Shown: positions 8,192 through 28,836, counted from the first letter of the stretch. The stretch is DNA of 64,000 nt from an uncultured Rhodospirillaceae bacterium (GCA_964482135.1 CAYZWF010000002.1:6639-70638), one strand, 5' to 3'. Numbers and translations: made by a program. Notes: generated from the letters alone by a model not told the origin.

Positions 8192-8194
8192 GGC

Positions 8195-10146: not shown

Positions 10147-11784
10147 ATGAGAAAATATATCTTAGCTGTGTCGGCGGTTGCCATGGCGGCGGGTCTTGCC
10201 ATGGGATCCTCGGCCCCGGCGATAGCTGCCGACAAGGCCGCTCCGACAATGTCGAAGGAAGACTTTGATGAGGCCAAGACCTTGTATTTCCAGAGATGCG
10301 CCGGTTGTCACGGAGTATTGCGCAAGGGAGCGACGGGAAAAAACCTGGAACCCGGTCCCTCGAAAAACAGTAAGGGCACTCTCGAACTCGGCCAGAAGCG
10401 TCTCGTAAAAATTATCACCCTCGGTACCGAGGGCGGCATGAACAACTTCGATGATATCTTCACCAAGGACCAGATCGCCAAGCTGGCGACCTATATCCAG
10501 CTGCCTCCTCCCGAGCCGCCGGAGATGTCCCTGGCGCAGATGAAGGAAAGCTGGAAGGTACACGTTAAGCCCGAAGACCTTCCCAAGAAGCCCCAACATA
10601 CCGGTAACTGGGAGAACTACTTCCTGGTCATCCTTCGTGACGCCGGCAAGATAGGGGTCATCGACGGCGACACCAAGGAAGTGGTGGCCAAGATCGACAC
10701 CGGCTACGCCATCCATGTGATTAAGGAATCCTCCGACGGCCGCTTCTGGTACACCCAGGGCCGTGACGGCAAGATGACGAAAATCGATCTGTGGATGGAC
10801 CCGCCGCAGGTGGTCGCCGAGGCCCGAGTCGCCTATGACGCCCGCGACGTGGCCGTTTCTCACTTCGGAGAATGGAAGGACAAATACGTGATCGGCGGTG
10901 GCTACTGGCCGCCTCACTTTGTCATTCTCGACGCCGAGACCATGGAGCCTCTTAAGGTAATCTCCACCCGTGGCGTCAACGTGGACGGTGAATATGTGGA
11001 GGAGGCGCGTGTGGCGGCTATTTACAACACGCCAGAGGCCCCGACCTGGATCGTCGCCGTCAAGGAGCTGGGTCAGCTGTGGCAGGTGGATTACAGCGAC
11101 ATCGACAATCTCCAGATTAACCAGATCGACAGCCACAAATTCCTCCATGACGGCTTCTTCGATCCTACCTTGCGTTATTTCCAGATCGCCGCCAACGCCT
11201 CCAACCGGATGGAGATCATGGATTCCATTGACCGTAAGTTCGTGGCCTCGATCGAAACCGGCAAGAAGCCTCATCCCGGCCCCGGCGCCAACTGGGTGGA
11301 TCCTAAATGTGGTCCGGTGGGCGGCACCGTACATCTGGGTGAGGGCAAGATGACCGCCTGGGGCAACGATCCCAAGGGCCATCCTGATCAGGCCTGGAAG
11401 GTTTGTTACAAGGCCGCCACCGACGGTCCGGGTCTGTTTATCCGCACCCATCCCAACGTGTCTTTCGTGGCCATGGATCAGACCAAGCATCCCGAACCGG
11501 AAGTTCAGCAGTCGATCAAGATTCTCGACAAGGAGACCCGGAAGATGATCAAGACCATCCGGGTTACCGAGCTGGAGAAAGCCGTCGCCGTCCATATCGA
11601 ATTCAACAAGGGCGGCAGCGAGATGTGGGTATCGGTCTGGGCCCGTGGCGGCAAAAAGGACTGGCTCAAGGGTGAAATCGTCGTTTACGACACCAAGACC
11701 CTTGAGGAAAAAACCCGGATTAAGAATCTTGAAACACCGACCGGCAAATTCAACGTCTATAACAGGATGCACCACAAGACGTGA
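10147..11784 (+). CDS. nirS: Cytochrome cd1 nitrite reductase NirS (copy 1)
   Basis: Signal peptide, heme c CAGCHG, then d1 propeller with conserved cd1 segments. 545 aa. Confidence 0.9.
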   Translation: MRKYILAVSAVAMAAGLAMGSSAPAIAADKAAPTMSKEDFDEAKTLYFQRCAGCHGVLRKGATGKNLEPGPSKNSKGTLELGQKRLVKIITLGTEGGMNNFDDIFTKDQIAKLATYIQLPPPEPPEMSLAQMKESWKVHVKPEDLPKKPQHTGNWENYFLVILRDAGKIGVIDGDTKEVVAKIDTGYAIHVIKESSDGRFWYTQGRDGKMTKIDLWMDPPQVVAEARVAYDARDVAVSHFGEWKDKYVIGGGYWPPHFVILDAETMEPLKVISTRGVNVDGEYVEEARVAAIYNTPEAPTWIVAVKELGQLWQVDYSDIDNLQINQIDSHKFLHDGFFDPTLRYFQIAANASNRMEIMDSIDRKFVASIETGKKPHPGPGANWVDPKCGPVGGTVHLGEGKMTAWGNDPKGHPDQAWKVCYKAATDGPGLFIRTHPNVSFVAMDQTKHPEPEVQQSIKILDKETRKMIKTIRVTELEKAVAVHIEFNKGGSEMWVSVWARGGKKDWLKGEIVVYDTKTLEEKTRIKNLETPTGKFNVYNRMHHKT

Positions 11785-11967: not shown

Positions 11968-13734
11968 ATGATTTCAGATAAATTTCGCTATTTTCTGACA
12001 AACCGGCTCGTCAAGTCGATCATCATGACGCCGGTTCGTTCCACGATTATCGGCGCGGCGGCCTTTTTCGCGATCGGAATCGTTTTCTGGGCCGGTCTGA
12101 ATGTGGCTATAGAATCCACCGATAATATGGAGTTCTGCATCGGCTGCCATGTGATGGAGAGCACCGTTTATCAGGAATATAAAAAGACTCCCCACTATCA
12201 GAATCGCACCGGAGTGCAGGCCACCTGTCCCGACTGTCACGTTCCCCGGCCCTGGCTCGACAGAGCCCTGCGCAAGCTGCGGGCCAGCAACGAGATATTG
12301 CACTGGATGTTGGGCAGCATAGACACGCCCGAAAAATTCGAGGCCAAACGCCTCACCCTGGCCAAGCATGTGTGGAAATCCATGAAGGAAACGGATTCCC
12401 GCGAGTGCCGCAACTGCCATTCCTGGGAAGCCATGAAGGGTGCAAAGCAGCAGCGCCGGGCGAGAAAACAGCATGAACTGGCGCTTATAGACAACCTGAC
12501 CTGTATTGATTGCCATAAGGGCATTGCTCACAGAGCCGTGCATAAGCTTCTCGATGATGACGAGGATTTCTACGACGGCAAGTCCGATCCACGTAAGCTC
12601 GATGTTCTTACCGCCGCCGAGGCCGCGGTCGCGGAGAAAGAAGAAGCTGCCGCTGCCGCGGCATCGGCGGAGGAAGCGCCCGTAGCCGAGGCGCCCGGCA
12701 AGGCGGAAGCCGCGGAAAGCACGCCCGCATCCGCACCCTCACCCACACCATCAGCAGGCGGCGAAGCAGCGGGCGGCGGACCTGCCTGGGGCAATATTCC
12801 GGGCCGCGATATCGTTGTCTTCTATCCGGGGCAGACCTCCATGGAGTGGATCCTCAAGGGGAGCGACCATGGCGGCGCGCGCGCCATCAAGAAACTGGGC
12901 GATCCCTGCGCCGAGTGCCATGAGGGTGAGCAGGATAAAATGGGCAGGATTCTGGCCAGCGGTGAGAAAGCCGAGGCTACGCCCATTCCCGGCAAACGCG
13001 GCCATATCAAGGTCAACGTCAAGGCCGCCCATGACGGCGAAAATCTCTACATGCATTTCCAATGGCCGGGAACCGAGCATACGCCGGCGCCCTTCGTGGA
13101 CGGCGGCAAGATGGACCCCGATAATCAGGTTAAGCTTGCCGTTATGTTCGATGACGGAAAGGTGGACGCTGCCGACAGCGCGGGCTGTTGGGTCACCTGT
13201 CATCACGATTCCCGCTATATGCCCGATCATCCTGACGCCGCCGCCGTCACCGCCGCGGGCGATCTCGCCAAACGGCTCGGTGCGGCCGACGGGATCACCA
13301 AGTATCTGAAGGAAACGCGCAGCGAAATCGAGATCAAGGGCAACGACGACAAGCCCCGTGGCGGTTGGGACAAGCTCAAGCCGGCATCCGAGATCGAGGA
13401 GCTGAAAGGTGCCGGGGCTTTCATGGACCTGATGCGCGTTAAGATCGGCGAGGGTAAATCGGAAAGCGGTTCCGTGCTGGAACATCGGGCCATGAGCGGG
13501 GAGTCGGGCATCACCTTCAGCGGAGGCCTTGCCGACGGCGTCTGGTCCGTGACCGTGACCCGCCCCCTCAAGGCGGACAAGCCCGGCGGCGTCACCATCG
13601 AGCCGGGCAAGCTCTATACGGTGGGGATCGCCATTCACGACGATTACACCCTGGCCCGGTTCCACCATGTTTCACTGGAATACTCGCTGGGACTCGACAA
13701 CGAAGAGGCTGGCATTAATGCCATCAAGATGTAA
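11968..13734 (+). CDS. nirT: NapC/NirT-family membrane tetraheme cytochrome c fused to a C-terminal extra heme-binding domain (EB_dh/DOMON-like)
   Basis: N-terminal TM helix then four CxxCH motifs (CIGCH, CPDCH, CRNCH, CIDCH). An Ala/Pro-rich linker follows. The about 330-aa C-terminal domain carries CAECH and a CWVTCH motif. Confidence 0.75.
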   Translation: MISDKFRYFLTNRLVKSIIMTPVRSTIIGAAAFFAIGIVFWAGLNVAIESTDNMEFCIGCHVMESTVYQEYKKTPHYQNRTGVQATCPDCHVPRPWLDRALRKLRASNEILHWMLGSIDTPEKFEAKRLTLAKHVWKSMKETDSRECRNCHSWEAMKGAKQQRRARKQHELALIDNLTCIDCHKGIAHRAVHKLLDDDEDFYDGKSDPRKLDVLTAAEAAVAEKEEAAAAAASAEEAPVAEAPGKAEAAESTPASAPSPTPSAGGEAAGGGPAWGNIPGRDIVVFYPGQTSMEWILKGSDHGGARAIKKLGDPCAECHEGEQDKMGRILASGEKAEATPIPGKRGHIKVNVKAAHDGENLYMHFQWPGTEHTPAPFVDGGKMDPDNQVKLAVMFDDGKVDAADSAGCWVTCHHDSRYMPDHPDAAAVTAAGDLAKRLGAADGITKYLKETRSEIEIKGNDDKPRGGWDKLKPASEIEELKGAGAFMDLMRVKIGEGKSESGSVLEHRAMSGESGITFSGGLADGVWSVTVTRPLKADKPGGVTIEPGKLYTVGIAIHDDYTLARFHHVSLEYSLGLDNEEAGINAIKM

Positions 13735-14176
13735 GCAGCCACGCCGCAGGAGTTTCCGCTTCTTGTATATGGCGGCTATGGCAAGCGCGGGACTGGCCTT
13801 TGCGGCGATACTGATCACGCCGCCGGTTGCACTGGCGGACGAGGAAAGAGAGAGAATCTGCGCCGAGGCTGAGAAACGCTATCAGGAACTATTCGATGGG
13901 GCGGGTGGCGATGTGTCCGTCGTGAAAATGTACAAATACAACTTTTGCCCCATGGACCTGACCGTGACGGCCGGGACCACGGTGCGTTGGATCAATGTGG
14001 ACAAGCGCACCAGCCACAGTGTCTGGCTTAAGGTGGCGGGGATTGAGGAAACGGATCGTCTATTTCCCGAAGAAAGCTGGGAGCACCAGTTTACGGATAG
14101 CGGAGAATACCCCTATCTGTGCGGACCCCATGGGGAACAGGAGAGCATGACCGGTAAAGTTACGGTTGTTCCCTGA
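13718..14176 (+). CDS. Type-1 copper cupredoxin (pseudoazurin/plastocyanin-like electron carrier)
   Basis: Ligand pattern H...C-G-P-H...M (TSHSVW ... YLCGPHGEQESMTG). N-terminal hydrophobic signal. Start is ambiguous (13718 or 13769); the 13667 start in the track overlaps nirT. Confidence 0.65.
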   Translation: MPSRCKQPRRRSFRFLYMAAMASAGLAFAAILITPPVALADEERERICAEAEKRYQELFDGAGGDVSVVKMYKYNFCPMDLTVTAGTTVRWINVDKRTSHSVWLKVAGIEETDRLFPEESWEHQFTDSGEYPYLCGPHGEQESMTGKVTVVP

Positions 14177-14268: not shown

Positions 14269-14724
14269 GTGAAAAAAGTTCCCGTCCAATGGACCGACGA
14301 GTTAAGCGTCGGTGTCGATATTATCGACAAGGACCATCAGAAATTATTTTCATTATTCAAACAGCTTCGCTCGCTTAATGAAGAAGGCGATCGGACCGCG
14401 GCTATCGTTGATGTTCTTTCGGAGCTTTATGATTACACGGACTATCACTTCAAGCGGGAAGAGGCGGTGATGGAAGTCTGCAGTTATCCCCATTTAAACA
14501 GACACAGACAGGTCCACACAGCCTTTGCAGCCGGCGTCAAACGCTTCCTCGACGCCGCCGCCGATGGCGCCGATGAATTCATGGTGAACAGCCTGAGCGA
14601 ATTTCTGGAGGATTGGCTCAAGGAGCATATCATGGGGATGGACAAGGATTACGAAACCTGGACAGTGGGCAAGAACAACGAAATCAACGAGGTGAACCTG
14701 GATTTCGAGGCAAGCAGGAAATAA
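14269..14724 (+). CDS. Bacteriohemerythrin (hemerythrin-like metal-binding protein)
   Basis: Hemerythrin motifs W-x-D-x-L-x-V-G-x-x-x-ID-x-x-H...L, HFxxEE, H...H...E. GTG start with GGAGG ribosome-binding site. Confidence 0.8.
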   Translation: MKKVPVQWTDELSVGVDIIDKDHQKLFSLFKQLRSLNEEGDRTAAIVDVLSELYDYTDYHFKREEAVMEVCSYPHLNRHRQVHTAFAAGVKRFLDAAADGADEFMVNSLSEFLEDWLKEHIMGMDKDYETWTVGKNNEINEVNLDFEASRK

Positions 14725-14837: not shown

Positions 14838-16616
<1,779 letters not shown>

Positions 16617-16922: not shown

Positions 16923-19169
16923 ATGTCTTGTGAATACAAAAGGTTTACATGCATAACATTTCTGTTTGTGGCCTGTTTGTTTTGCCGGGCCATCGCAGCC
17001 CCGGCCCACGCCGATGAAGGTGCGGCGGATTTTTTCGAGCCAAGGATTCTTTCGCGCATCTTTCCCGCCGCCGACGGCTTCGGCCCCCTTCAGGGTAATC
17101 CTCCCGCAATTGCCGTCTATCGTGGCGACAAGCAGCTTGGGTATGTCTTTTCCAGCCGCCAGGTGGTGGGGTCCACGGGGTTTTCAGGCAAGCCCCTGGA
17201 TATCGTCATTGGCCTTGACCTCGAAGGAAAGATTGCCGGGCTGGAGTTGCGCGAACATCACGAGCCGATTCTGGTGATCGGCATCAGGGACGCGGACCTG
17301 GAACGTCATATGCAGCAATATGTGGGGTTTCACGTGGCCACCCGGGTAACGCCGGTTGCCGACAAGCGTAAGGAAACGGCACCGGAAACGGCACCGGAAA
17401 CGGTATTGGAAACGGCAACGGAAGAAGCCGCGGTCGATATCCTCAGCGGCGCTTCCATCACCACCGCGGTTGTCAATGATGTGATCATGCGCGCCTCACG
17501 GGCAATGGCGCGTTCGCGGGGAATCCTGCCGCCCCTCGAGGATGATGGACGTGGCGTGGTGGATTATGACCGCTTCGAAAGCAAGGATTGGAGCGCCCTG
17601 CTCAGGGAAGGCGCCATAGCTGTTCTGCGCCTCTATAACAGTGACGTGTCGCAGGCCTTCGCCGCCCAGGGGGTGCCTGCCAAATCAATAAAACGAATGA
17701 AGCAACAGTTGGGAGAACCTAAGGGCCGTTTCATCGATCTTTATGCGGCCCTGGCCACGCCGGCGCTGATTGGCCGCAATCTCTTGGGGGATCATCTCTT
17801 CGGCCGTCTCTCTTCCGATCTGGAGCCGGGAGCGCAGATGATCCTGATCGCCGGTGACGGGCGCTATTCCTTCAAGGGAACGGCCTATGTGAAGAACATC
17901 GTCTTTGACCGTATTCAGATTATTCAAGGAGAGAACACCTTCAAGTTTAATACCGGGGATCATCGGCGCGTAGAGTCTCTGGCCGTGGAGGGGGCTCCCA
18001 TATTGCGGGAACTGGGCCTGTTCACCCTTTCCCCGGGAAGCGGATTCGATCCGGCGCAGCCCTGGCGCCTGGAGATTCTCGTCGTCAGATCCTATACGGA
18101 TGCGAAGGGAAAGGAGATAGAGGATTACGCAGCATTCACCTTGCCCTACCGCTTGCCCGGGGAGCTGATAGAGCGCGCCGCCGGCGTGGAAGACGTAGCG
18201 GCGGAACGGGCATCCTGGCCTCTTTGGCAACATGCCTGGGCCGACAACCAGGGAAAGATCGTCGTCCTTAGCGTGGCTTTGCTGATCCTTCTTAGCGCCC
18301 TGGTTTTCCAGGATTCCATGGAGCGCCGTCCGCGATTCTACCGTTTTTTCCGTCTCGGTTTCCTGGTGTTCACCACAGTATGGATTGGCTGGTATGCCGG
18401 GGCTCAGCTTTCGGTTATTAACGTGATTACCTTCTTGCAGTCTTTGGTCACCGCCTTCAGCTGGGAATTCTATCTGCTCGGCCCCCTGATCTTCATCCTT
18501 TGGTGCTTCGTGGCCGTGGCCCTGTTGTTCTGGGGGCGCGGCGTCTATTGCGGCTGGCTGTGCCCCTTCGGGGCCTTGCAGGAACTTCTCAACGAGGTGG
18601 CCCAGAAGGTCCGGGTGCCGCAGATAAATATCCCTTTCACGGTCCAGGAACGGCTGTGGCCCATCAAATACATGCTGTTTCTTGGCCTTCTCGGGCTGTC
18701 TTTCTATTCTATGCGTGAGTCTGTGGTGCTGAGCGAGGTGGAGCCCTTCAAGACCGTGTTCTCGCTTAACTTCCAGCGTGCTTGGCCTTTCGTGGCGTAC
18801 GCCGTTGGTCTGTTGGTGGCGGGGCTGTTCATCGAGCGTTTCTTCTGCCGCTATCTTTGTCCCCTGGGCGCGGCGCTGGCGGTTCCGGCGCGCGTGCGCA
18901 TGTTCGAATGGCTGAAACGGCGCCCCCAATGCGGCCGGGAATGCCGTATCTGCGCCCAGGAATGTACGGTGGGAGCGATCCACCCCAACGGCCAGATCAA
19001 TCCCAACGAATGCATTTACTGTATGCATTGCCAGGTACTTTATTACGATGATCACCGCTGTCCGCCCATGATCAGCCGCCGCGAACGCAAAGAGACCTAC
19101 CGGGCGGCACGGGAGGGGGAAAACGGGGACGACCCCGCAAGAGAAGGAGGCCATGTGGATGCGGTCTGA
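16923..19169 (+). CDS. nirI: NosR/NirI-family membrane-bound FMN-binding iron-sulfur regulator
   Basis: Periplasmic FMN-binding domain, about 6 TM helices, and C-terminal CX3CP and ferredoxin cysteine clusters (YCGWLCPFG, CRYLCPLG, CGRECRICAQEC). Divergent from nirS and followed by an ApbE gene, as for Paracoccus nirIX. Confidence 0.8.
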   Translation: MSCEYKRFTCITFLFVACLFCRAIAAPAHADEGAADFFEPRILSRIFPAADGFGPLQGNPPAIAVYRGDKQLGYVFSSRQVVGSTGFSGKPLDIVIGLDLEGKIAGLELREHHEPILVIGIRDADLERHMQQYVGFHVATRVTPVADKRKETAPETAPETVLETATEEAAVDILSGASITTAVVNDVIMRASRAMARSRGILPPLEDDGRGVVDYDRFESKDWSALLREGAIAVLRLYNSDVSQAFAAQGVPAKSIKRMKQQLGEPKGRFIDLYAALATPALIGRNLLGDHLFGRLSSDLEPGAQMILIAGDGRYSFKGTAYVKNIVFDRIQIIQGENTFKFNTGDHRRVESLAVEGAPILRELGLFTLSPGSGFDPAQPWRLEILVVRSYTDAKGKEIEDYAAFTLPYRLPGELIERAAGVEDVAAERASWPLWQHAWADNQGKIVVLSVALLILLSALVFQDSMERRPRFYRFFRLGFLVFTTVWIGWYAGAQLSVINVITFLQSLVTAFSWEFYLLGPLIFILWCFVAVALLFWGRGVYCGWLCPFGALQELLNEVAQKVRVPQINIPFTVQERLWPIKYMLFLGLLGLSFYSMRESVVLSEVEPFKTVFSLNFQRAWPFVAYAVGLLVAGLFIERFFCRYLCPLGAALAVPARVRMFEWLKRRPQCGRECRICAQECTVGAIHPNGQINPNECIYCMHCQVLYYDDHRCPPMISRRERKETYRAAREGENGDDPAREGGHVDAV

Positions 19170-20241
19170 CACGAATAATTCTGCCCGGCAGGCAAAGGTT
19201 TCCCGCAGGCGGGCAATCGGGGTTTTCGCCGCCACGGCGGGGCTGCCGCTGATGATGTCGGTTCCCGGCGTGGCGCGGGCCGCCGGACGGAACGGGTCTC
19301 TCTTTGAATGGAACGGCACGGCGCTGGGCGCCAGTTCGCGGATGATCCTCTCGCACCCCGACCGCGAGGCGGCGCGGCGTCTTGTGGTCATGTGCCGGGA
19401 TGAAATCGAGCGGCTGGAACGGATTTTCAGCCTCTACCGTTCTTCTTCCGAACTTTCCCGTCTTAACCGGGGCGGCCGGCTTGATGCGCCTTCCCATGAC
19501 ATGGTGCGTCTGTTGAGCGCCTGCCGCCGTTTCGGTGATCTCAGCGGCGGCGCCTTCGATGTGACCGTGCAACCCTTGTGGCGGCTCTATGCCGATCACT
19601 TCGCCGCCCATCCCGGAGATGAAAACGGCCCTGATGCCAGGGCGCTGGAGCGGGTCCGGGCGCTGGTGGATTATCGCGGCGTGGAGGTGACGGCGCGGCG
19701 CATTTCCTTCGCCCGCAAGGGCATGGCGGTGACCTTGAATGGGATCGCCCAGGGCTATATCACCGACCGCGTGGCCGAATTATTGCGCGCCGAGGGCATG
19801 GACAATGTACTCATCCAGCTTGGCGAGACCCACGCCCTTGGCGGCCATCCCCAAGGCCGGGCCTGGCGCCTGGGCCTGACGGCGGCGGCGGGAACCCATG
19901 GCGAGGGGGCTGGCCATGACGAAGCGACTGGGGAAAATGTGGTGGAACTGCGTAACCGCGCCCTGGCCACCTCCGCGCCCCACGGATTTACCTTCGACCG
20001 CGAGGGACGCTTTCATCATCTGATCGACCCTGATTCCGGGAACAGTCCTCAAGCCGTGGCCGGCGTTTCCGTGACCGCGCCCCGGGCCGCCGATGCCGAT
20101 GCCCTGTCCACGGCGCTCTCGGTTATGGAGGCGCGGCGCGGGGCACAGATGATGGAGAGGGTGGGAGACGCCACGGCATGGGTAGTTCTGGCCGATGGCG
20201 GGGAAATAACCCTGGGCCGGGCACGAGGATCGAAAGCGTAG
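19153..20241 (+). CDS. nirX: ApbE-family FAD:protein FMN transferase (NirX-like)
   Basis: Tat signal SRRRAIGVFAATAG. ApbE motifs (VTLNGIAQGYITD). Overlaps the nirI 3' end by 17 nt. Confidence 0.8.
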   Translation: MWMRSDTNNSARQAKVSRRRAIGVFAATAGLPLMMSVPGVARAAGRNGSLFEWNGTALGASSRMILSHPDREAARRLVVMCRDEIERLERIFSLYRSSSELSRLNRGGRLDAPSHDMVRLLSACRRFGDLSGGAFDVTVQPLWRLYADHFAAHPGDENGPDARALERVRALVDYRGVEVTARRISFARKGMAVTLNGIAQGYITDRVAELLRAEGMDNVLIQLGETHALGGHPQGRAWRLGLTAAAGTHGEGAGHDEATGENVVELRNRALATSAPHGFTFDREGRFHHLIDPDSGNSPQAVAGVSVTAPRAADADALSTALSVMEARRGAQMMERVGDATAWVVLADGGEITLGRARGSKA

Positions 20242-20266: not shown

Positions 20267-20662
20267 TCAGCCGTGAAGTTTGTGCAGGGGGGCGTCCATC
20301 TTCCTGAAATGGGTGGAAAACCACCCCCGCAGTTCGTCGGCGAACTGGTCCTCGGACTGGAAATAGGTGCCGTCCTCGTGGCGGTCCATGATGTCACGGA
20401 TTTGATCGAGAAGGTATTCGTGTTCCTTTTTGTGGGCGTTGAAGCCGCTATAGTTTTCGTCGCGCATGGTCTTTTCCTCGAGCGCGAAGTGGAGGGAGAT
20501 ACGGGCGAAAAGCTCACCCAGAAAATCGCCGACCGATTCGCGGGAGCCCTGGGACATCATTTCGCCGTGGAGTTCGTTGATAAGCGAAATCAACTGTTCA
20601 TGTTCGTAATCCACATGGGGGATTCCGGTCTTGAACTCCTCTTTCCATTCGATCAGCGTCAT
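20267..20662 (-). CDS. Bacteriohemerythrin (second copy); last gene of the HCO operon
   Basis: Hemerythrin ligand motifs (HVDYEHEQL, HFALEE, HKKEHEYL). Confidence 0.8.
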   Translation of the reverse strand: MTLIEWKEEFKTGIPHVDYEHEQLISLINELHGEMMSQGSRESVGDFLGELFARISLHFALEEKTMRDENYSGFNAHKKEHEYLLDQIRDIMDRHEDGTYFQSEDQFADELRGWFSTHFRKMDAPLHKLHG

Positions 20663-20682
20663 GGCGACCCCCGGTCGTTTTG

Positions 20683-21201
20683 TTATTTTATGACAAAGTT
20701 CGCCGATGGGGTGGAAAAAACCACGGCCAGATTGCGGGTCGGTTCCAGATCTACCTCCTGGGTGGTCTCATAATCGAAACCCTCTGCGCGGCCGCTGTCG
20801 CGCATGCGCATATCCAGGCGGTGATGCCCGGCGGGCACGGTGATGCGTTCGTAAAAATAGGATGGTCCGTCGCTCGACAGGCCGGAGGGTGGCTGTTCGC
20901 GGCTGAAAATAAGTTCTCCATTGAGAAGAATCTCCACCAAGACGGGGTGGCGCTCGCGCGGGCAGAGCTGTAGCGCGCGCCGGGTGGTGCGGGTCTCCTT
21001 GATGCCGGCGAACTGGCGGATGTCGCATTCGCCTTTGTGTTTTCCACCGTGACTGATGGAAAGTTTCATCACCGCCGTGTCTGGGGCGAGCCGTATATAG
21101 GCCGGGCTGTTGGAGAAATATCCCAACACCACCGCCAGGGCCAGATAGGCCACGCCCTGTCCGAGGAATTTCATCGCTCTAGACATGAGGCTACGAGGCA
21201 T
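20683..21201 (-). CDS. Hypothetical membrane-anchored protein (one N-terminal TM helix)
   Basis: ORF with hydrophobic N-terminus (GVAYLALAVVLGYF). No recognisable motif. Overlaps the upstream gene by 11 nt, so probably co-transcribed. Confidence 0.5.
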   Translation of the reverse strand: MPRSLMSRAMKFLGQGVAYLALAVVLGYFSNSPAYIRLAPDTAVMKLSISHGGKHKGECDIRQFAGIKETRTTRRALQLCPRERHPVLVEILLNGELIFSREQPPSGLSSDGPSYFYERITVPAGHHRLDMRMRDSGRAEGFDYETTQEVDLEPTRNLAVVFSTPSANFVIK

Positions 21202-22786
21202 GGGGGTGCTCCTTTTCTCCGTCCCCCTCTTTCGCGGCGGATGTTTTCATGGCCATTAAATGATCGCGGAATGCCTTCAGGCGGTCGGCCAGTTCCCCGG
21301 GTTCGGTGGGGGCGAGCCAGGCGGTGGCGATACGTTCGCGCGGCACCCGGTCGCGCAGATAGGGATCCCGCTTGCCGCCGATTCTCAACTCCGTCCATTC
21401 CACACCGAGCCGGTGAAAACACTCGTTCTCGCGACAGCCGGCAAGCATGATGCCGTCGGCGTGGCCGCGGGTGAGGACGTAATCCATAAAGGCGGGCGGC
21501 AGCATGGCGATGCAGGGAAGGCTGAACACGGCGACGTCGGGTGAGGCCAGTTTGCCGATATCGTTGCCATGGTCGCAGCCGAAAATAACGATCTTCGATT
21601 CGCCTTCGAGACGCGCAAGAGCCTGATCCACGTTCTTGCGAAGCTTGTCCAGGGTGAATTGGGGCAGGTCGATACCGGTCACCAGTTCCGTTGAGGTGCG
21701 GAAGGGCGTGGAGGCGGGACAGGACCCCACGCAGATGCCGCAGGCGGTGCATAGATCGCTCGAAACAAGGGCAATGGAGGGGAAGGGGCGTCCGTCGTCG
21801 CGCGGCCCCATCACCACCGCCCCATAGGGGCAGTCCTCGAAACAACGGGTGCAGCCGTTGCAATTGGCGGCATCCACCACCGCCGGGCTGGAGCGTTTGA
21901 AGGGCGGCGCCCAGGGCAGGATGCTGAGCACGGTGCTGGTTCCCACCAACAGCAGCCAGACCCATCCCGCCGACCATATCTCGATCAGTGGATAGAATCC
22001 GAGATAGAACCAGTCGAGGCTGACCTTTTCCACCACCATGCCGAGATCAGCCGGGGGGTGACTCAGCGCCGGTTTATAGAGCGCGAGCAGGAAAAGCATG
22101 CCCAGGGTACCGGCGGCCAGCGCCAGGGGCGGGTTGACCCTGGGACGGCTGATGCGCAGCAGGTGAATCCACATGGCAAACAGCAGGAACAGGGGCAGGG
22201 CGATGTGGAGGAAGACGAGCAGCGAGAAGAAACGGTCGCCGAGGCTGCCTCTGGTCAGGAAATTATTGGCGATGGGCTCGCCGAACAGGGGCAGCCAGTC
22301 CATCCATTCGAAGGTGGCCACGGCGATATACTGGGCCAGCTGGTCCCATACCAGCCAATAGCCGTTGATGCCGGAAGCAAAGGCAAGCCAGAGGATGGGG
22401 ATACCGCTGAACCAGGAAAACCAGCGTACGCTGCGGTAACGGTCGAGGACGAACTCGCGCATCAGATGCAGCATCATGGTAATCACCAGCGCATCGGAGG
22501 CATAGCGGTGGAGGCTGCGCATGATTCCGCCCAGATACCACTGTTCCACGGTGAGATACTCGATGGAGTCGTAGACGCCATTGATGCTGGTCTCGAAGAC
22601 GATATAGAGGTAGATGCCGGTGGCGGCGACGATCCAGAAATAGAAGTAGCCCAGCGCGCCGAGCTGGGTCAGGGGGTTGAGCTTGGGTCCGAAGGCCGCG
22701 TCGAACCAGCCTTCGACCTGCATGAGTCCGTTTTGCGCGGTCCGCCGCAAAGGGTGGGGCTGGGAAGGTGAGGCATTTCCGTTCAC
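21191..22786 (-). CDS. Triple-domain fusion: cytochrome b/b6-like transmembrane domain + 2x[4Fe-4S] ferredoxin + MvhD/FlpD-like domain
   Basis: N-terminus resembles cytochrome b (GGIMRSLHRYASDALVITMMLHLM vs [23 protein letters not shown]). Middle has CNGCTRCFEDCP and CTACGICVGSCP. C-terminus matches the methyl-viologen-reducing hydrogenase delta-subunit family (IVIFGCDHG ... GIMLAGCRENECFH). ATGA overlap with the SCO1 stop. Confidence 0.7.
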   Translation of the reverse strand: MNGNASPSQPHPLRRTAQNGLMQVEGWFDAAFGPKLNPLTQLGALGYFYFWIVAATGIYLYIVFETSINGVYDSIEYLTVEQWYLGGIMRSLHRYASDALVITMMLHLMREFVLDRYRSVRWFSWFSGIPILWLAFASGINGYWLVWDQLAQYIAVATFEWMDWLPLFGEPIANNFLTRGSLGDRFFSLLVFLHIALPLFLLFAMWIHLLRISRPRVNPPLALAAGTLGMLFLLALYKPALSHPPADLGMVVEKVSLDWFYLGFYPLIEIWSAGWVWLLLVGTSTVLSILPWAPPFKRSSPAVVDAANCNGCTRCFEDCPYGAVVMGPRDDGRPFPSIALVSSDLCTACGICVGSCPASTPFRTSTELVTGIDLPQFTLDKLRKNVDQALARLEGESKIVIFGCDHGNDIGKLASPDVAVFSLPCIAMLPPAFMDYVLTRGHADGIMLAGCRENECFHRLGVEWTELRIGGKRDPYLRDRVPRERIATAWLAPTEPGELADRLKAFRDHLMAMKTSAAKEGDGEKEHPHAS

Positions 22787-23661
22787 GGGGAGCCGTCCTT
22801 GGAACGCCGCCGCCGGGATCGGACTAGGAAAATCAGTGTGCCGCCAATACAGATTCCGCCGATGGCCATGCCCACGAACAGGGAATAATCAAAACGATAG
22901 CGGCCGCTCGCCGGATCGTAGACGGTGCAAAACAGTTTCACCCGGTTGGCGATCCCCTCGAAGCTGGTGAAAGAGGCGCCGGTTCCGTAAATGAGGTTTT
23001 TGAGTGGCTCCACCAGATGGGGGGGGCTGAAATCCTCACCGTATATCTGGTTGGTAACACGTCCTTCGGCATCGGCCACCGTGACCTGGCTCAGATGGTC
23101 GAAGCCTTTGGGAGATTCCTTGAAGATGAAGCCCAATTCCTTGCCCAAGGCGGCGATGGTCGGGGCATCGGCGCTGAGGAAGAGCCATCCCTCGTCCCCG
23201 ACGCCGTGACTTTTTGCGAATTGGCCCATGCGTTGGGGCGTATCCGTGGGCACGTCGAAGCCGATACTGACAACATGGAAGGAGTCGGCGCCCATGGCTT
23301 CACGCGCCGTCTCCACGGCCCGCCCCAGGGTCTCGGTGATGAGGGGGCAGGCATGGGCGCAACTTGAATAGATGAGGCTGATGACCAGGGGTGTGCCACG
23401 GAAATCGGAAAGCCGCACGGTTTTTCCCGACGCGTCGGTAAAGGTGGCATCGCCGATCACCCTGCCGACGGCGGCCTGGCTGATGGCAAGGGCGTTCTCG
23501 GAATCGAAATCGTTTTCATCTTCATGTGTGGGCGACATATGGGTATTGCCGCCGTGCCCCGCCAGCCCCGGCATGGGGATCAGGCCGAGGAAAAGAAATG
23601 CAGCCGCAAGAATCGATTTCACGTGGCGTCTCCCAGGGATGAGTATATGCAGAGATACCAA
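22783..23661 (-). CDS. SCO1/SenC-family copper chaperone (thioredoxin-like, CxxxCP) with C-terminal TM helix
   Basis: Signal/TM region, CxxxC motif SSCAHACP, and a conserved His (DHLSQV region). Confidence 0.75.
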   Translation of the reverse strand: MVSLHILIPGRRHVKSILAAAFLFLGLIPMPGLAGHGGNTHMSPTHEDENDFDSENALAISQAAVGRVIGDATFTDASGKTVRLSDFRGTPLVISLIYSSCAHACPLITETLGRAVETAREAMGADSFHVVSIGFDVPTDTPQRMGQFAKSHGVGDEGWLFLSADAPTIAALGKELGFIFKESPKGFDHLSQVTVADAEGRVTNQIYGEDFSPPHLVEPLKNLIYGTGASFTSFEGIANRVKLFCTVYDPASGRYRFDYSLFVGMAIGGICIGGTLIFLVRSRRRRSKDGSP

Positions 23662-23719
23662 GAGCGGTGCGACTTATGTCGCACCGCTCTCAGTATACAG
23701 GATTATGGCGCTTGAGGCT

Positions 23720-25417
23720 TTAGCTGAGGCCCCAGGTTTCCGCCAGGTACTTCCAGTTGACGAAGTAATAGAGGACGAAGGTAACCAGGAACACCATGGC
23801 CAGGGCAAAGGTTCCCGGAACCTCCAGATGGTCGGCGCTGCCGTACTGCGCCGCCGCGGTCGTGGGCGGTGCTTCGGCTGCCGGCGCGGGTGCGGCTTCG
23901 CCCTTGGTCTTGCCAAAGAGCAGAGAGCCAACCACCACGATGATGAACATGGCGCCTCCCAGAGAGGCAACCACGGCGCTGACGCCGTTGAGACCCAACA
24001 TGAGATAGGCGGCGCCGGGGAAGTCCATGCTCATGGCGGCGTCGCTGAAGGTAATATCCCAGTGCCGCCGGGGCACGCCCAGAGTGCCGGCTCCCATCAT
24101 GAAGACGGAAAGTCCCGTCACTCCGATGGCGAAGACGTAGGGTTGCCACTGCGCCATTTTCGGGAACAGGATTTCCTTGCGGAAGATAAGCGGCACCAGA
24201 AGATAGGTGACGGCCATGAAGGCCAGGGTCGTTCCCGCCACTACGGTGCCGTGGAAATGGCCCGGCACATAAAGGGTGTTGTGCATGATCAGGTTGATTT
24301 GTTCGGTGCCGAGAATGACACCGGTGATGCCACCCAGGAACCCGAACATGACCAGCGAGAGGAACATGCCGGAAAAGGCGGGATTGCCCCATGGCGCCTT
24401 GCGCAGCCATTCGAACAGGCCCTTGTTGAAGCCCTTTTTACGCTGCGCCGCCTCGATTGAGCCAGGCACCGTAAGGCCGTGGATCATGCTCGCCAGCACC
24501 GCCAGATACATGGCGTAGCTGGTGTTGAAGATCTTGTATTCCGAACTCAAGCCCGGCTCCACCAGCAGGTGATGGACGCTGCCCAGTTGCAGGAACAGGA
24601 TATAGAGAAGGAAAGCCGTGCGGCTGACCTTCTCGGACAGGGGCTTGGCGCCGAAGAGCACGGCGGCGATCAGGTACCATACCGCCACATGGGCCGAGAC
24701 GTTGATCTGTTGCGAGGAATGGCCCATGGCCCACCACACCACCTTGTACATGAGGGGGTCGATGTAGCTGACGAGACCCACCGACCACATCAGGGTGGGG
24801 ATGAGAATGATAGCGCCCGAGGCGATGGTGAAAACGGCGATGATGGCCGCAGTTATGGCGCCGAAAGTGACCAGCGGGACCGAACCCTCGTAGGTCTTTT
24901 CATCCTTGGCTATGACCAGGGTGCCGAAGAAACAGCAACAGCCCAGCAGGGCGCCTACGGCGAACAGGATGATCCCGAGATAGAACAGGGGATCGGCCTG
25001 CATGGGCACGTAAGAGGTGAACATGACGCTGGATTCGCCCATCAGCACGACAACGTTGGTCATGGCGGCGCCCACCAGCATCAGCCAGAAGCCGACCCAG
25101 GCCAGTTTAGGCGCTGCCAGACGGCAGCCCAGCAGAATAGCGGACGCAAAGTAGAGTACCGCCATTTCGAAGAAGATCATCCACACCAGCAACACGTCGA
25201 GACCGTGTGCGGTCAAGGCCAGATAGAACCAGTCGTCGGGCAGGAAATGCACCGCCGGCCAGCGGGTCAGCGCCACGGAGAGACCGAACAGTCCGCCGAC
25301 GAGCAGGAAGACCACGGCGACAACGGCGTTGGCCTTGATCAGCTTTTCGGCGGGAAGATGGACCTTGAGCCCGGTATCGGGGCAGGTGCGAAATTGTGTG
25401 TCGTTTGCCATGTCCAT
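23720..25417 (-). CDS. Heme-copper oxidase superfamily subunit I (B-family-like; candidate CuA-type NO reductase catalytic subunit)
   Basis: 12+ TM helices. CuB/heme ligands present: helix VI GH (WAMGHSSQQ), helix VII HH (SVHHLL), helix X HxH (HFHGT). The cross-link Tyr is absent at H+4 (Q instead). 565 aa, like Thermus ba3 subunit I. Confidence 0.75.
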   Translation of the reverse strand: MDMANDTQFRTCPDTGLKVHLPAEKLIKANAVVAVVFLLVGGLFGLSVALTRWPAVHFLPDDWFYLALTAHGLDVLLVWMIFFEMAVLYFASAILLGCRLAAPKLAWVGFWLMLVGAAMTNVVVLMGESSVMFTSYVPMQADPLFYLGIILFAVGALLGCCCFFGTLVIAKDEKTYEGSVPLVTFGAITAAIIAVFTIASGAIILIPTLMWSVGLVSYIDPLMYKVVWWAMGHSSQQINVSAHVAVWYLIAAVLFGAKPLSEKVSRTAFLLYILFLQLGSVHHLLVEPGLSSEYKIFNTSYAMYLAVLASMIHGLTVPGSIEAAQRKKGFNKGLFEWLRKAPWGNPAFSGMFLSLVMFGFLGGITGVILGTEQINLIMHNTLYVPGHFHGTVVAGTTLAFMAVTYLLVPLIFRKEILFPKMAQWQPYVFAIGVTGLSVFMMGAGTLGVPRRHWDITFSDAAMSMDFPGAAYLMLGLNGVSAVVASLGGAMFIIVVVGSLLFGKTKGEAAPAPAAEAPPTTAAAQYGSADHLEVPGTFALAMVFLVTFVLYYFVNWKYLAETWGLS

Positions 25418-25423
25418 GTCCCC

Positions 25424-25966
25424 CTATTTATCAACCACGACAATTTTGCCCAGCATGGTGTGGTGGCCAATGCCGCAAAATTCATTGCAAACGATACCAA
25501 ATTCCCCGCTCTCGGTCGGCGTGATCGTTGCCACCATGTCGTATCCGGGATGAATCTGTAAATTGAGATTGACCGGTTGCAGGGAAAATCCGTGCAGCCA
25601 GTCCAGCGAGGCGAGATGCAGACGGTAGGTTTCCCCTTTTTGCAGTTCGAAAACGGGCCACCACTCCCACAGGCGGGCGATCATATAGATGTCGCTGCCG
25701 GGCGGGGGACTCACCACCGGCACGTCGGTCTCGCCCCAGGTGCCGACGGTGTATTCGGCCGCCGCGGCTTCCGCCTTCGCCGCGTAAACGTCGGAATTGA
25801 TCCGGTAGCCTTCGGTGGGTGGGTTCTGCTGCCCTTCCAGATGCCAGTAAGGCATCATGAAAAACATGATGATGCACCAGATCAGGCCGATGCCGATCCA
25901 CAGGACTTCGTTGCGTCCGATGGGCTCGTTCCACCAGATACGTTGTTCGGGAGGTGAGATGGCCAT
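25424..25966 (-). CDS. Heme-copper oxidase subunit II with CuA centre (no cytochrome c domain)
   Basis: Single TM helix plus cupredoxin with a complete CuA motif H...CNEFCGIGHHTM. 180 aa, comparable to ba3 subunit II. Confidence 0.8.
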   Translation of the reverse strand: MAISPPEQRIWWNEPIGRNEVLWIGIGLIWCIIMFFMMPYWHLEGQQNPPTEGYRINSDVYAAKAEAAAAEYTVGTWGETDVPVVSPPPGSDIYMIARLWEWWPVFELQKGETYRLHLASLDWLHGFSLQPVNLNLQIHPGYDMVATITPTESGEFGIVCNEFCGIGHHTMLGKIVVVDK

Positions 25967-25985
25967 GTCTCTTTACCTTTCGCGG

Positions 25986-26144
25986 CTAGTTGGCGAGGGG
26001 GATCGAGATGACTTCCATAATCCCCCAGATTAAATAGAAGACGGTGGGCATAACGATGCCTATGCAAAGCAGCAGAAAGGGATTGTCGAGAAGCTGTTGC
26101 ATGAAGGGAATCTGGTCCCCCTTGCCCCCCTGATCATCCACCAT
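25986..26144 (-). CDS. Small single-TM protein (52 aa), candidate oxidase subunit IIa-like
   Basis: Not in the ORF track (under 60 aa). Hand-translated as MVDDQGGKGDQIPFMQQLLDNPFLLLCIGIVMPTVFYLIWGIMEVISIPLAN. AAGGAG Shine-Dalgarno 7 nt upstream. Lies directly upstream of subunit II, as cbaD does in the Thermus cbaDBA operon. Confidence 0.5.
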   Translation of the reverse strand: MVDDQGGKGDQIPFMQQLLDNPFLLLCIGIVMPTVFYLIWGIMEVISIPLAN

Positions 26145-26308
26145 GAGTTTTCTCCTTCAGTAGCAACGATGCTGTATTGGTGAGGCGTGAAAGTAGCAGA
26201 TTAAGTACAACAAATGGAAGGGTGTAGATTTCCGCTTACGTTCCGTAGCGGCAAAATGTCACACATTGGAAAGTCTGAAGAGCGGGGGGAGGCGCTAAGG
26301 AGCGGGGG

Positions 26309-26497
26309 TTACATGTAGTCCGGGGCCAGCGCCCGGATCACGGCGAAGCTGCTCACGGCAAGCGTCAGGATGATGAAGAAGAAGAAGATCGCGCGGTATT
26401 GGAAGCGCCGCCCCGCCATGACCTCGGCGCGGTCGAGAAGGCGGTCGGAGATCACGTAAATGATGATACCGGCTACGGTGAAGGCGATGAATTCCAT
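26309..26497 (-). CDS. Possible small two-TM membrane protein (62 aa)
   Basis: ORF with two hydrophobic segments and a GGAG ribosome-binding site. No homology basis. An imperfect hairpin (26234-26253) follows. Confidence 0.3.
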   Translation of the reverse strand: MEFIAFTVAGIIIYVISDRLLDRAEVMAGRRFQYRAIFFFFIILTLAVSSFAVIRALAPDYM

Positions 26498-26518: not shown

Positions 26519-28591
26519 TCAAAGAGGAAGAGGGGGAATCATGGCCGGGTAGGTTCCCTGTTGGCGCAGAATTTCCCAGCGCTTGCGCAGGGCCAGCCGC
26601 AGATAGCGGTATCTTGTGGTCTTTCGCACGTCTTCGGGTTTATGGCCGGCTTTTTCCCAGAGAGCACGCTCGAAATCGAAGGGCTCGCCGATCAAGGGCG
26701 CAATGTCATCGAGCGCCTTGGCGAATCCCGCGTCGTCTTCCTCCACATAGCCGTGGAGTCTGGCGAACGGATAGAACAGCGTGCCGAGGATGAACCGGTC
26801 GCGCTCGCTGAATGATTTTCCCACCTTGCGGGTGATGGCGCTTTTATCGAATTGGTCCCTGCCGCCATGGGTGGCGCCGCCGGGCTCACCCCACCATTTC
26901 AGCCCCTGCATGGTGGACTGGCCCATGGTGTCGGAGGGCTCTACCCCGATCCAGGTGCTCAGGCGGCGCAGGGTCTCCCCGGTCTCGTTCTTGAGGTCTT
27001 CGAGGTGTATTCCGGCGGAGTCGCACAGGCCGAATTCGGTTCTGGAGAAGAGGTGCAGCATTTCCAGCACATGGCCGTAGAGGGAGGTGTAGTTGGCGGA
27101 GCTGTCGCCGGAGGGAATCAGGGCCTCGAGGTTCTGCAAGGGTTCGCGCACCGTCATCAGGAGTTTGGCGTCGGGGAAATATTTAAGGAAGTTCAGCAGC
27201 TCGTAAGGGTTGGGGTTGTGGATGTGATAGAAAATCACATCCTGGCCGCCAGCCCGGCTCCCCTCTCTTCCCGTGGTCTTCTCGAAGGCGACGTGGATCA
27301 TGCGGAAGAAATCGCCCTGATGGAACCGGCCGCATTCTTCCATCAGTTCGTCGAGGTGGCCCAGGAACACCGCCCGGTCCAGCTTCAGCGATTGCTTGCC
27401 GTCCTCGCCCATTGTGGTGAAGCCTTCCGACACGCCGACGCGGAAATCATCGGGCCGGTTGGGGTTGCCCGGTACCGGCTGGGGGTTGGCGGCGTCGAAC
27501 AGCACCTCGTAGAGGGCGGCGAAACGTAATCCGATTTCCTTTATTCCCCCGGCGGTCAGGCGCGGCCAGACATCGGACCCGAAGAACCCCTTCATATAAA
27601 CGCCGGGCAGGGTGGTGATTTGCGGGTGGCCGTCAACAAGGCTGTGTAGGAATCCGGTGCCGCTGCGGCCATAGGCAAGCAGGGCCACCACGCGCTGTTG
27701 GGGTAGGGTTGAGGGCTCTTTTTGTTTTTTACCAGCGGTGATGGTTTCAGCCTCCGCGCTGGGCAGGGCGGCGATGGCCGCCTCGCAGCTTGGGGTGGCT
27801 GTTTCCGGATCGAGCGAACGGGTGATGTAGTCGAGGAGGAGTGGCGTGGGCGAGTCCGGAAGCGCCGTCTTTAGGTTTTCCATGAAAGCGTGCGCGATCT
27901 GTTTCCCGTTCTCATCTTCGTGGGCCAGGATCACCAGGGGGGCGGCGAGAAGGCCGAGGATTTCCTTGCGCCCGGGGGCAACGGCGAAGAGCTTTTCACA
28001 GCATTGGACGAGCTCTTCCAATTTTCCGATCTCGCCCAGGGCAGAGGCCATGCCCAATAGCGAGTCCACATTGTCGGGGGAGAGTTCCAGCGCGCGCTTC
28101 AGGGAAGTCTCGGCTTCGTCGAGGCGGTCCAGCCGGCGCAGCGTCAGCCCCAGATTGCTGTGGACCTGAGCCGCCTGGGGTGCCTTTTCAAGAACCTGCC
28201 GATAGCAGGACTCGGCCTCGGCGAAGCGTTCCTGCGCCTGTAGCGCCAGCCCCAGATTGTTGAGGGCCGCGGCGGAATTTGGCTCGATCTCCAGTGCGCG
28301 CTTCAGGTTTTTTTCCGCTTCCTCCGGATGCCCCAGATCTTTCAGTACCAGCCCTAAATTGCTGAGAAAACCAACATTGGCGGGCGCCAGCGAAACCGCC
28401 TTGCGGATATGCTGTTCGGCCTTTGCCGGATTCTCCGCCTGATAGGCGAGAAGGCCGAGAAGGTGCCAGGCCTCGGCGTTGCCAGAATCGGCTTTGATCA
28501 CCCGCCGGTAACAGGATTCGGCTTGCGCGAAACGGCCCACGGACTGGTGCTGGCTGCCCTTCACCAGCAGGGCGTGATGTTCGGCCGCCAT
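26519..28591 (-). CDS. TPR-repeat protein with C-terminal sulfotransferase-family domain
   Basis: Multiple TPR-like repeats (AEAWHLLGLLAYQ ..., NLGLVLKDLG ...). PAPS-binding-like P-loop LLAYGRSGTGFLHSL. Start taken at MAAEHH (28591) rather than the overlapping 28789. Confidence 0.6.
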   Translation of the reverse strand: MAAEHHALLVKGSQHQSVGRFAQAESCYRRVIKADSGNAEAWHLLGLLAYQAENPAKAEQHIRKAVSLAPANVGFLSNLGLVLKDLGHPEEAEKNLKRALEIEPNSAAALNNLGLALQAQERFAEAESCYRQVLEKAPQAAQVHSNLGLTLRRLDRLDEAETSLKRALELSPDNVDSLLGMASALGEIGKLEELVQCCEKLFAVAPGRKEILGLLAAPLVILAHEDENGKQIAHAFMENLKTALPDSPTPLLLDYITRSLDPETATPSCEAAIAALPSAEAETITAGKKQKEPSTLPQQRVVALLAYGRSGTGFLHSLVDGHPQITTLPGVYMKGFFGSDVWPRLTAGGIKEIGLRFAALYEVLFDAANPQPVPGNPNRPDDFRVGVSEGFTTMGEDGKQSLKLDRAVFLGHLDELMEECGRFHQGDFFRMIHVAFEKTTGREGSRAGGQDVIFYHIHNPNPYELLNFLKYFPDAKLLMTVREPLQNLEALIPSGDSSANYTSLYGHVLEMLHLFSRTEFGLCDSAGIHLEDLKNETGETLRRLSTWIGVEPSDTMGQSTMQGLKWWGEPGGATHGGRDQFDKSAITRKVGKSFSERDRFILGTLFYPFARLHGYVEEDDAGFAKALDDIAPLIGEPFDFERALWEKAGHKPEDVRKTTRYRYLRLALRKRWEILRQQGTYPAMIPPLPL

Positions 28592-28836
28592 GGGGACGCT
28601 GCCGCCTTGCCGGTTCACGGCGGGTTTCCCACTACGTCCGGTTTTAGCACCATGTTCTCCACACACCCCGGAAAGCACACCCAAGAGCGGGTGGCGCTGG
28701 TTCAGAACCGATGCCCGGATTGTGACCGTGATCCCTTTTCCGTGCAAGGGGGTGGTGGCGTGGATTGCGTCACTATGAAACAGCGCCATATATGAACAGA
28801 GTGCCGCATAATGGCTTGTCCCGGGAGTCAGGACTT

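Follow-up and report, generated by a model that had tools for sequence, protein, structure and literature searches.

Is the heme-copper enzyme encoded in a nitrite-to-N2 denitrification island an oxygen reductase, as its public annotation as a cytochrome c oxidase has it, or a nitric oxide reductase (NOR), and if the latter, of which kind? The question is raised by a minus-strand operon at positions 20267-26144 of a 64,000-nucleotide stretch of DNA from an uncultured Rhodospirillaceae bacterium (GCA_964482135.1, CAYZWF010000002.1:6639-70638; the whole stretch is hereafter called the window), which an initial annotation had flagged as encoding a non-canonical CuA-type heme-copper oxidase and candidate novel NOR. 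Our answer, to which we assign a probability of roughly 85%, is that the operon encodes a nitric oxide (NO) reductase of the eNOR family, with maturation and accessory proteins, in a nitrite-to-N2 denitrification island. The enzyme family is already described (Hemp & Gennis 2008; Murali et al., PNAS 2024, PMC11214002), and the locus is a correct detection of a known family rather than a new one.

The operon consists of seven tightly packed open reading frames, spaced from an 11-bp overlap to 97 bp, all of which were found where the initial annotation had placed them and were called independently on identical marine metagenome contigs. With protein families assigned using Pfam and NCBIfam, and with the gene directly upstream included, the features are as follows (lengths in amino acids, aa).

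26309..26497, minus strand: 62-aa protein with two predicted transmembrane helices, called as a gene on the identical contigs, directly upstream of the operon
25986..26144, minus strand: 52-aa small subunit with a single transmembrane (hydrophobic) segment, in a position analogous to ba3 subunit IIa (CbaD)
25424..25966, minus strand: putative eNOR subunit II, 180 aa, an N-terminal transmembrane helix followed by a periplasmic CuA cupredoxin domain
23720..25417, minus strand: putative eNOR subunit I (COX1), 565 aa (PF00115, E 5e-68)
22783..23622, minus strand: SCO1/SenC copper chaperone (PF02630, E 3e-11)
21191..22786, minus strand: 531-aa fusion of a di-heme cytochrome b6-like membrane domain, two [4Fe-4S] motifs and an FlpD (MvhD) domain (Pfam Cytochrome_B, Fer4 families and FlpD)
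20683..21201, minus strand: 172-aa membrane-anchored beta-sandwich protein (AlphaFold2 model)
20267..20662, minus strand: bacteriohemerythrin (NCBIfam, E 1e-29), a cytoplasmic di-iron O2/NO-binding protein and the last gene of the operon

Synteny was counted over 83 related loci, where most absences are contig ends. The subunit II gene is present in all 83 and is preceded by the 52-aa small subunit, which itself has no Pfam or NCBIfam match, in 80; the gene order is found again in about 70-80 loci from different species and is therefore far from chance. The initial annotation is upheld on the seven genes but not on where the conserved unit ends upstream, as a homolog of the 62-aa membrane protein, in the same place and on the same strand, occurs just outside the proposed span in 42 of the 83 loci; this gene may be a separate transcription unit. 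The likeness drawn between the small protein, subunit II and subunit I order and the Thermus cbaD-cbaB-cbaA genes also holds, the three-subunit layout being the same.

Subunit II is, as proposed, a CuA protein in which Pfam and NCBIfam detect no cytochrome c domain. Its best PDB match is the ba3 subunit II/CuA domain (E 1e-14), with which the ligands H...C-N-E-F-C-G-I-G-H-H-T-M all align, and the complete CuA motif, H...CNEFCGIGHHTM, is kept across 84 sequences. The best solved homolog of subunit I is likewise the Thermus thermophilus ba3 oxidase (E about 1e-43, 28-30% identity), and ba3 numbering was rebuilt from this alignment before 84 clade members were aligned. Residues H71, H233, H282, H283, H387 and H389 of the window protein fall on ba3 H72, H233, H282, H283, H384 and H386; these six His ligands, two to the low-spin heme, one to the high-spin heme and three to the CuB/FeB site, are kept in 83-84 of the 84 members. 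What is lost is the tyrosine that in ba3 is cross-linked to His233. The helix VI motif reads WAMGH233-S-S-Q-Q237, with Gln237 at the position of ba3 Tyr237, as the initial annotation had read it (H-S-S-Q-Q), and the ba3 pair Val236-Tyr237 is Gln-Gln in every one of the 84 sequences. Gln237 was also found by residue mapping in two more distant members (P0148 and P0154).

The putative proton path that the initial annotation wanted mapped resembles the K type. Residues Y248, S261 and S309 (S310 in window numbering) are invariant or nearly so in the clade, the Ser309 equivalent being present in 84 of 84 sequences, and position 315 is Thr or Ser. Two ba3 residues of this region are replaced, T312 by an invariant His313 and Y244 by Val or Ile, so that the K-channel-like path of the window protein would run through Y248, S261, S310, H313 and T316.

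These residues were set against the published family criteria. The residue four positions after the helix VI His (His+4) is Tyr in O2 reductases, Asn in sNOR and bNOR, and Gln in eNOR, while gNOR has Asp in place of a His ligand (PMC8756737, Table A4 and Fig. 6). The eNOR K-channel resembles that of the B family and includes Ser309, which sNOR lacks, its conserved Glu lying elsewhere (PMC11214002). Gln at His+4 together with an invariant Ser309 is the eNOR combination. The cross-linked H233-Y237 pair of B-family O2 reductases is absent, Y237 being Gln; gNOR, whose subunit II is also without CuA ligands, disagrees with a protein pair in which all three CuB-site His and the full set of CuA ligands are kept; and cNOR and qNOR disagree both with Gln at His+4 and with a CuA cupredoxin as subunit II, no cNOR or qNOR chain being found among the PDB matches of subunits I and II at E <= 1e-3.

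Phylogeny gives the same picture. Distant members were gathered by a search of 1.84 billion representative proteins, followed by residue mapping and cluster look-ups, and a neighbour-joining tree (100 bootstraps) was calculated from the Q-Q proteins and Tyr-bearing B-family oxidases. The Q-Q proteins form one clade (bootstrap 90) outside all Tyr-bearing B-family oxidases, to which subunit I is 25-32% identical, and the expectation that the enzyme would not fall inside the O2 reductases is borne out. The clade holds the window protein and proteins from Woeseiaceae, Rhodospirillaceae, Defluviimonas, Thermus, Thermomicrobium and a haloarchaeon (an H-x-x-Q-Q protein from Natrarchaeobius, 40% identity), a taxon range that fits the published eNOR distribution and tree. 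When subunit I was compared with plasmids by tblastn, only QQ-type proteins or Tyr-bearing B oxidases were matched; of ten non-QQ plasmid matches examined, nine keep Tyr237 (from Deinococcus, Geobacillus, Haloarcula, Brevibacillus, Methylobacterium, Burkholderia, Variovorax, Janthinobacterium and Cupriavidus) and one, from Azospirillum, is degenerate. Two further traits of the family are present among the relatives. The low-spin heme has His and Lys as its ligands in some eNORs (PMC11214002), and a Thermus plasmid member of the clade has this variant, with Lys at ba3 H386. The family has heme A-type cofactors, often with heme O or heme A synthase genes (ctaB/ctaA) in the operon; heme A biosynthesis genes occur in many eNOR operons (PMC11214002), and a heme O synthase gene directly follows subunit I in 58 of 81 related loci, as it does in the published Magnetospirillum and Ferrigenium eNOR operons. 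We file the enzyme under eNOR because Gln237, Ser309, the His/Lys variant of the Thermus member, the heme O synthase gene of most relatives, the Q-Q clade and the taxon range all agree.

The initial annotation had thus been right to read an NO reductase from a B-family CuA enzyme with a lost Tyr in a nir/nos island, but the branch that it named, sNOR/CuA-NOR-type or undescribed, has to be given up. Nor is eNOR poorly characterised in the way that was implied. The purified Rhodothermus marinus enzyme (Rmar_0161) reduces NO (Murali et al., PNAS 2024, PMC11214002), the Magnetospirillum magnetotacticum 'cytochrome a1-like' hemoprotein is a second characterised eNOR (PMC11214002), and eNOR is counted routinely in metagenomes (PMC13592168). 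By analogy with these family members the window enzyme would be expected to reduce NO.

Set beside the family as a whole, the window enzyme shares B-family derivation, a CuA subunit II, Gln for the cross-link Tyr and a K-channel-like path that includes Ser309, along with a distribution over Proteobacteria, Thermus, Chloroflexi-like bacteria and haloarchaea; its genes, too, are often mislabelled as cytochrome c oxidase, and in most relatives a heme O synthase gene stands beside the catalytic genes. It differs in that neither a heme O nor a heme A synthase gene lies near the window copy, the former being absent from the entire 64-kb window, and in that the proteobacterial subclade adds SCO, the fusion, the beta-sandwich protein, the hemerythrin and the 62-aa protein, none of which occurs in those Thermus, Thermomicrobium and haloarchaeal loci that were examined. 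With T. thermophilus ba3 (cbaD-cbaB-cbaA) it has in common the small transmembrane peptide, CuA subunit II and subunit I layout, the six His and a single K-type path; unlike ba3 it has Gln for Y237 and for V236, Asn for W239, His for T312 and Val for Y244, it lies outside the Tyr-bearing clade, and it would be expected to carry out two-electron NO reduction rather than four-electron O2 reduction.

How, then, might the enzyme work? In sequence the subunits show an electron entry site at CuA, two sites for heme and one for a metal held by three His, a K-type polar path and no redox-active Tyr, and on these features we propose a scheme in which the activity, the electron donor, the proton uptake and every accessory role are putative. 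Periplasmic NO from two cytochrome cd1 NirS enzymes, the local NO source, would reach subunit I and be converted to N2O at a binuclear centre made up of the high-spin heme and the three-His metal site, with Gln236 and Gln237 in the places of Val and Tyr (2 NO + 2 e- + 2 H+ -> N2O + H2O). Electrons would pass from a periplasmic carrier, a cytochrome c or the neighbouring cupredoxin, to CuA of subunit II and on to the low-spin heme. Protons would probably be drawn from the cytoplasm through the K-channel-like path described above, and the reaction would therefore be electrogenic. SCO would presumably load CuA.

It is the accessory genes that leave most room for interpretation. SCO is found in 78 of the 83 related loci, the cytochrome b/Fe-S/MvhD fusion in 74, the 172-aa protein in 73 and the hemerythrin in 67. 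The operon does carry its own copper chaperone, as the initial annotation had it: the SCO protein has a C-x3-C-P motif and the conserved His, an N-terminal signal or anchor and an additional C-terminal transmembrane segment. The fusion has about six transmembrane helices, and its heme-ligand residues H93, H107, H194 and H208, two CxxCxxCxxxCP [4Fe-4S] motifs and four Cys of the MvhD part are conserved in 75 sequences; its best PDB match is cytochrome b6 (E 1e-19), MvhD being matched at E 2e-5, and it contains a PEWY-like loop, 'DWFYLGFYP' (an alternative start at 22723 would give 510 aa). Since an even number of transmembrane helices precedes them and their flanks are positively charged, the Fe-S/MvhD domains are predicted to be cytoplasmic. 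The 172-aa protein, in which H51, C59 and C80 are invariant or nearly so, has no Pfam or NCBIfam match; its AlphaFold2 model (predicted local distance difference test score 86.6) has one N-terminal transmembrane helix and a beta-sandwich, for which Foldseek against the PDB returned generic beta-sandwich matches only, none of them significant (best E 1.7e-3, template modelling score 0.39). An alternative start at 21174 would shorten it to 163 aa.

The fusion had been called a unique, putatively quinol-oxidising module. Unique it is not, given its presence in 74 of 83 loci and in a 56%-identical branch: in the locus of that member (L101) SCO and the fusion also follow eNOR, beside nirS and nap genes. 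A second, weakly COX1-like gene of 497 aa (L101, 6844-8337) was observed there immediately 5' of the small subunit, II and I genes, with nirS and napA/napD adjacent. Nor is the accessory module undescribed. The May 2026 preprint on Ferrigenium straubiae (bioRxiv 10.64898/2026.01.22.701106) reports eNOR II, eNOR I, heme o synthase and sco1, along with a 'scaffold protein' and a pair of cytochrome b/[Fe-S] proteins, from an operon expressed under denitrifying conditions, in which eNOR is the most abundant heme-copper oxidase transcript. The two operons differ in that one Ferrigenium cytochrome b protein has FAD- (flavin adenine dinucleotide) and NADH-binding domains whereas the window fusion ends in an MvhD-like domain, and in that a hemerythrin, present here, is not mentioned in the preprint. 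The accessory set is conserved more broadly in the loci counted here than the preprint implies.

The Ferrigenium authors propose a quinol:NAD+ oxidoreductase or a supercomplex (bioRxiv 10.64898/2026.01.22.701106), and by extension the fusion could be a dedicated electron-input module rather than a factor for maturation or redox housekeeping, oxidising quinol within an eNOR supercomplex or coupling NO reduction to the reduction of a cytoplasmic acceptor. The tight co-occurrence of fusion and eNOR, which extends to the 56%-identical member, the four conserved heme-ligand His with the PEWY-like loop, and the presence of the Ferrigenium homologs in the proteome under denitrifying conditions all speak for such a role. 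We nevertheless consider it less likely than not, as the Fe-S/MvhD domains are predicted to lie on the wrong side of the membrane for CuA reduction, so that the fusion is no obvious donor to periplasmic CuA, and as the Thermus, Thermomicrobium and haloarchaeal eNOR loci examined have neither SCO nor the fusion, indicating that the core enzyme works alone. Since other phyla have the core enzyme but not these genes, and since the Fe-S domains would be cytoplasmic, we favour a supporting role, which the fusion, beta-sandwich protein and hemerythrin would share. They would most likely connect the quinone pool with the cytoplasm by an electron path across the membrane that serves assembly, or take part in redox or O2/NO handling; such a role could be the supply of electrons across the membrane for maturation or redox repair, or O2/NO buffering tied to the O2-dependent heme A pathway discussed in the eNOR literature. 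It is rather doubtful that the fusion, the beta-sandwich protein, the hemerythrin and the 62-aa protein together form a dedicated functional module with proteobacterial eNOR, one possibility being a supercomplex through which NO reduction would be linked to the quinone pool or to a cytoplasmic redox carrier, another the delivery of O2 or reductant for heme A and CuA maturation under near-anoxic conditions. If true, this would be an unrecognised way to couple or mature a denitrification enzyme.

Returning to the catalytic subunits and their assignment to eNOR, four points weigh against it. The placement rests on a diagnostic residue, shared features and taxon distribution, and not on a joint tree with the R. 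marinus and M. magnetotacticum enzymes; for the proteobacterial subclade the literature examined holds no demonstrated NO reductase activity for any member; the B-site metal could be Cu or Fe, either one; and Tyr301, at the positive-side end of helix VIII of subunit I, is invariant in the Q-Q clade only, the position being Leu, Ile or Val in the H-x-x-Q-Y sister group and variable in the B family. This last observation also counts for a ba3-like B-family oxygen reductase working at low O2, in which another residue would have functionally replaced the missing Tyr, as would be in keeping with ba3 as the best solved homolog, with the gene order, CuA, six His ligands and K-path-like residues, with the public annotation and with an O2-binding hemerythrin in the operon. 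We consider such an enzyme very improbable. Tyr237 is Gln throughout the clade, which stands apart from the Tyr-bearing oxidases both in identity and in the tree, and neither candidate for a migrated Tyr convinces: Tyr272 is ruled out because the H-x-x-Q-Y sister clade, which keeps Tyr237, also conserves it, and Tyr301 is unlikely to reach His233, as the helical register would put it about three helical turns to the positive side of the K-path residue His313. The R. marinus eNOR, moreover, does not reduce O2 (2021 bioRxiv version), and its authors found no migrated Tyr in these families. Membership of sNOR or of bNOR (qCuA-NOR), or of a previously undescribed NOR branch, is equally hard to credit, for although sNOR is likewise a putative CuA-type, B-family-derived NOR with a SenC/SCO gene after the catalytic genes (norSY-senC-orf1 of ammonia-oxidising bacteria), bNOR shares the CuA subunit II and B-family origin, and both are set apart here by published criteria rather than by a joint tree with their references, both have Asn, with one and the same active site, where the window protein has Gln, sNOR is reported to lack the Ser309 that is invariant here, to place its Glu differently and to form a separate clade in published trees, bNOR is restricted to Bacillales (PMC11214002) while the hosts here are Alpha- and Gammaproteobacteria, the taxon spread, His/Lys variant and adjacent heme O synthase agree with eNOR, and relatives encoded in the genomes of at least 550 species, with an operon already described in print, hardly suit an undescribed branch.

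The operon sits among denitrification genes. The layout of the low-coordinate part of the window was taken from Pfam-annotated gene calls on identical European Nucleotide Archive (ENA) contigs, on which nosD and nosZ lie just past the window start.

23-3229, plus strand: nosF-Y-L-apbE (Pfam)
3317-9728, minus strand: nirN-J-H/G/L/D-F-C (Pfam)
10147-11784, plus strand: nirS2, the second nirS copy (Pfam, identical ENA contig)
11968-13734, plus strand: 588-aa multiheme cytochrome with Cytochrom_NNT, MtrC-like and EB_dh domains (Pfam)
13763-14176, plus strand: small cupredoxin (Pfam)
14269-14724, plus strand: second hemerythrin (Pfam)
14838-16583, minus strand: nirS1, cytochrome cd1 nitrite reductase (Pfam Cytochrome_CBB3 and Cytochrom_D1)
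16923-19169, plus strand: nosR/nirI-like membrane flavin mononucleotide/Fe-S protein (NCBIfam NosR 767 bits, under the 1000-bit cutoff)
19153-20241, plus strand: apbE/nirX-like flavin transferase (ApbE, Pfam E 8e-59)

The nosR/nirI-like and apbE/nirX-like genes, which belong to the surroundings and not to the enzyme, face the operon, as the initial annotation's nirIX had been said to do: the two converge, since the plus-strand pair ends 26 bp from the hemerythrin stop. The operon is not, however, flanked by two nirS genes as had been claimed, because both lie on its low-coordinate side. Between them sit the multiheme cytochrome, the cupredoxin and the second hemerythrin, of which the cupredoxin might donate electrons to NirS or eNOR. 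The 64-kb window contains no further COX1-family gene, from which it follows that there is no norB or qNOR there, in agreement with the earlier statement that norCB is not visible, and that the island offers eNOR as its sole NOR candidate. Such neighbours are not general among the relatives: nosR-like and apbE genes adjoin the eNOR cluster in only about 10 of the 83 loci, and about 20 have a nirS-like gene no more than 10 kb away. The eNOR cluster has upstream of it a gene for a 756-aa protein (26519-28789, minus strand) with tetratricopeptide repeats and a weak sulfotransferase-like C-terminal region below the Pfam cutoff, which has no counterpart in any of the 83 loci.

Regulation was approached through the same relatives. 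An FNR/DNR/NnrR-type palindrome, TTGAY-N4-RTCAA, is found some 120 nt upstream of the gene for the small subunit in 51 of 79 of them (loci L012-L091), against a background rate of about one per 14 kb, and would fit anaerobic or NO-responsive control. In many relatives an FNR-type box was observed between the 62-aa gene and the operon. No FNR/DNR-type box was found upstream of the window operon or of the window nirS genes, and an inverted repeat at 26255-26267, AATGTgtgACATT, was discarded as a single occurrence, no more than chance.

The enzyme is widespread. Subunit I has more than 8000 related protein clusters at E <= 1e-10 in a 5.8-billion-sequence database, the top 120 being at least 75% identical, and its own 90% identity cluster takes in an Alphaproteobacteria protein from a metagenome-assembled genome (MAG), MBL6934827.1. 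A genome-collection scan found at least 550 species-level genomes that encode a relative, the best 80 at 70-78% identity, in Woeseiaceae, Steroidobacteraceae, Rhodospirillaceae, Hyphomicrobiaceae and other Alpha- and Gammaproteobacteria. The cluster is also found on the Woeseiaceae chromosome OZ246981.1, and the whole of it is carried on a plasmid (NZ_CP156080.1) of a cultured strain, Defluviimonas sp. SAOS-178_SWC, which makes a cultured organism with the accessory set available. In estuarine sediments eNOR ranks first among the nor types in both abundance and transcription, and Woeseiales are dominant among net N2O producers (2026 study, PMC13592168); detection of the operon fits the first of these reports. 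Because the usual annotation of eNOR genes is cytochrome c oxidase, a genome such as this is counted among those with no NO reductase, and recognising the operon completes the nitrite-to-N2 pathway for this marine alphaproteobacterial lineage. With a layout that recurs in hundreds of genomes and a similar one already in a preprint, the locus has little novelty, and what interest is left lies in the conserved accessory gene set that accompanies the enzyme in most proteobacterial relatives.

Several relatives deserve mention in their own right. On the Thermus thermophilus plasmid pHB5018d (L006) subunit I, with Lys for the second low-spin heme His, lies at 7983-9665; its neighbours are genes for a multicopper oxidase, a cytochrome c and a regulator of the Rrf2 family, and the proteobacterial accessory genes are missing there. 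In the Thermus protein cluster look-up, WP_015717644.1, an accession from the eNOR tree of PMC8756737, was not among the members. The H-x-x-Q-Y sister group is archaeal (P0158, P0159 from a Hodarchaeales MAG, P0162 from a Thermoproteota MAG, and P0171); it keeps the cross-link Tyr, has Q236, N239, E84, Y272 and H313 in common with eNOR, and may be the oxygen-reducing lineage nearest the origin of eNOR. Finally, the degenerate protein of the Azospirillum brasilense plasmid (L098, NZ_CP032346.1, 4001-5326), P0203 from a Dehalococcoidia MAG, P0222 and P0245 are heme-copper-like proteins with an F-H-x-x-H-Y helix VI, Y-H for the H282-H283 pair and Tyr for the proximal His384, an active site that is different, degenerate or re-purposed.

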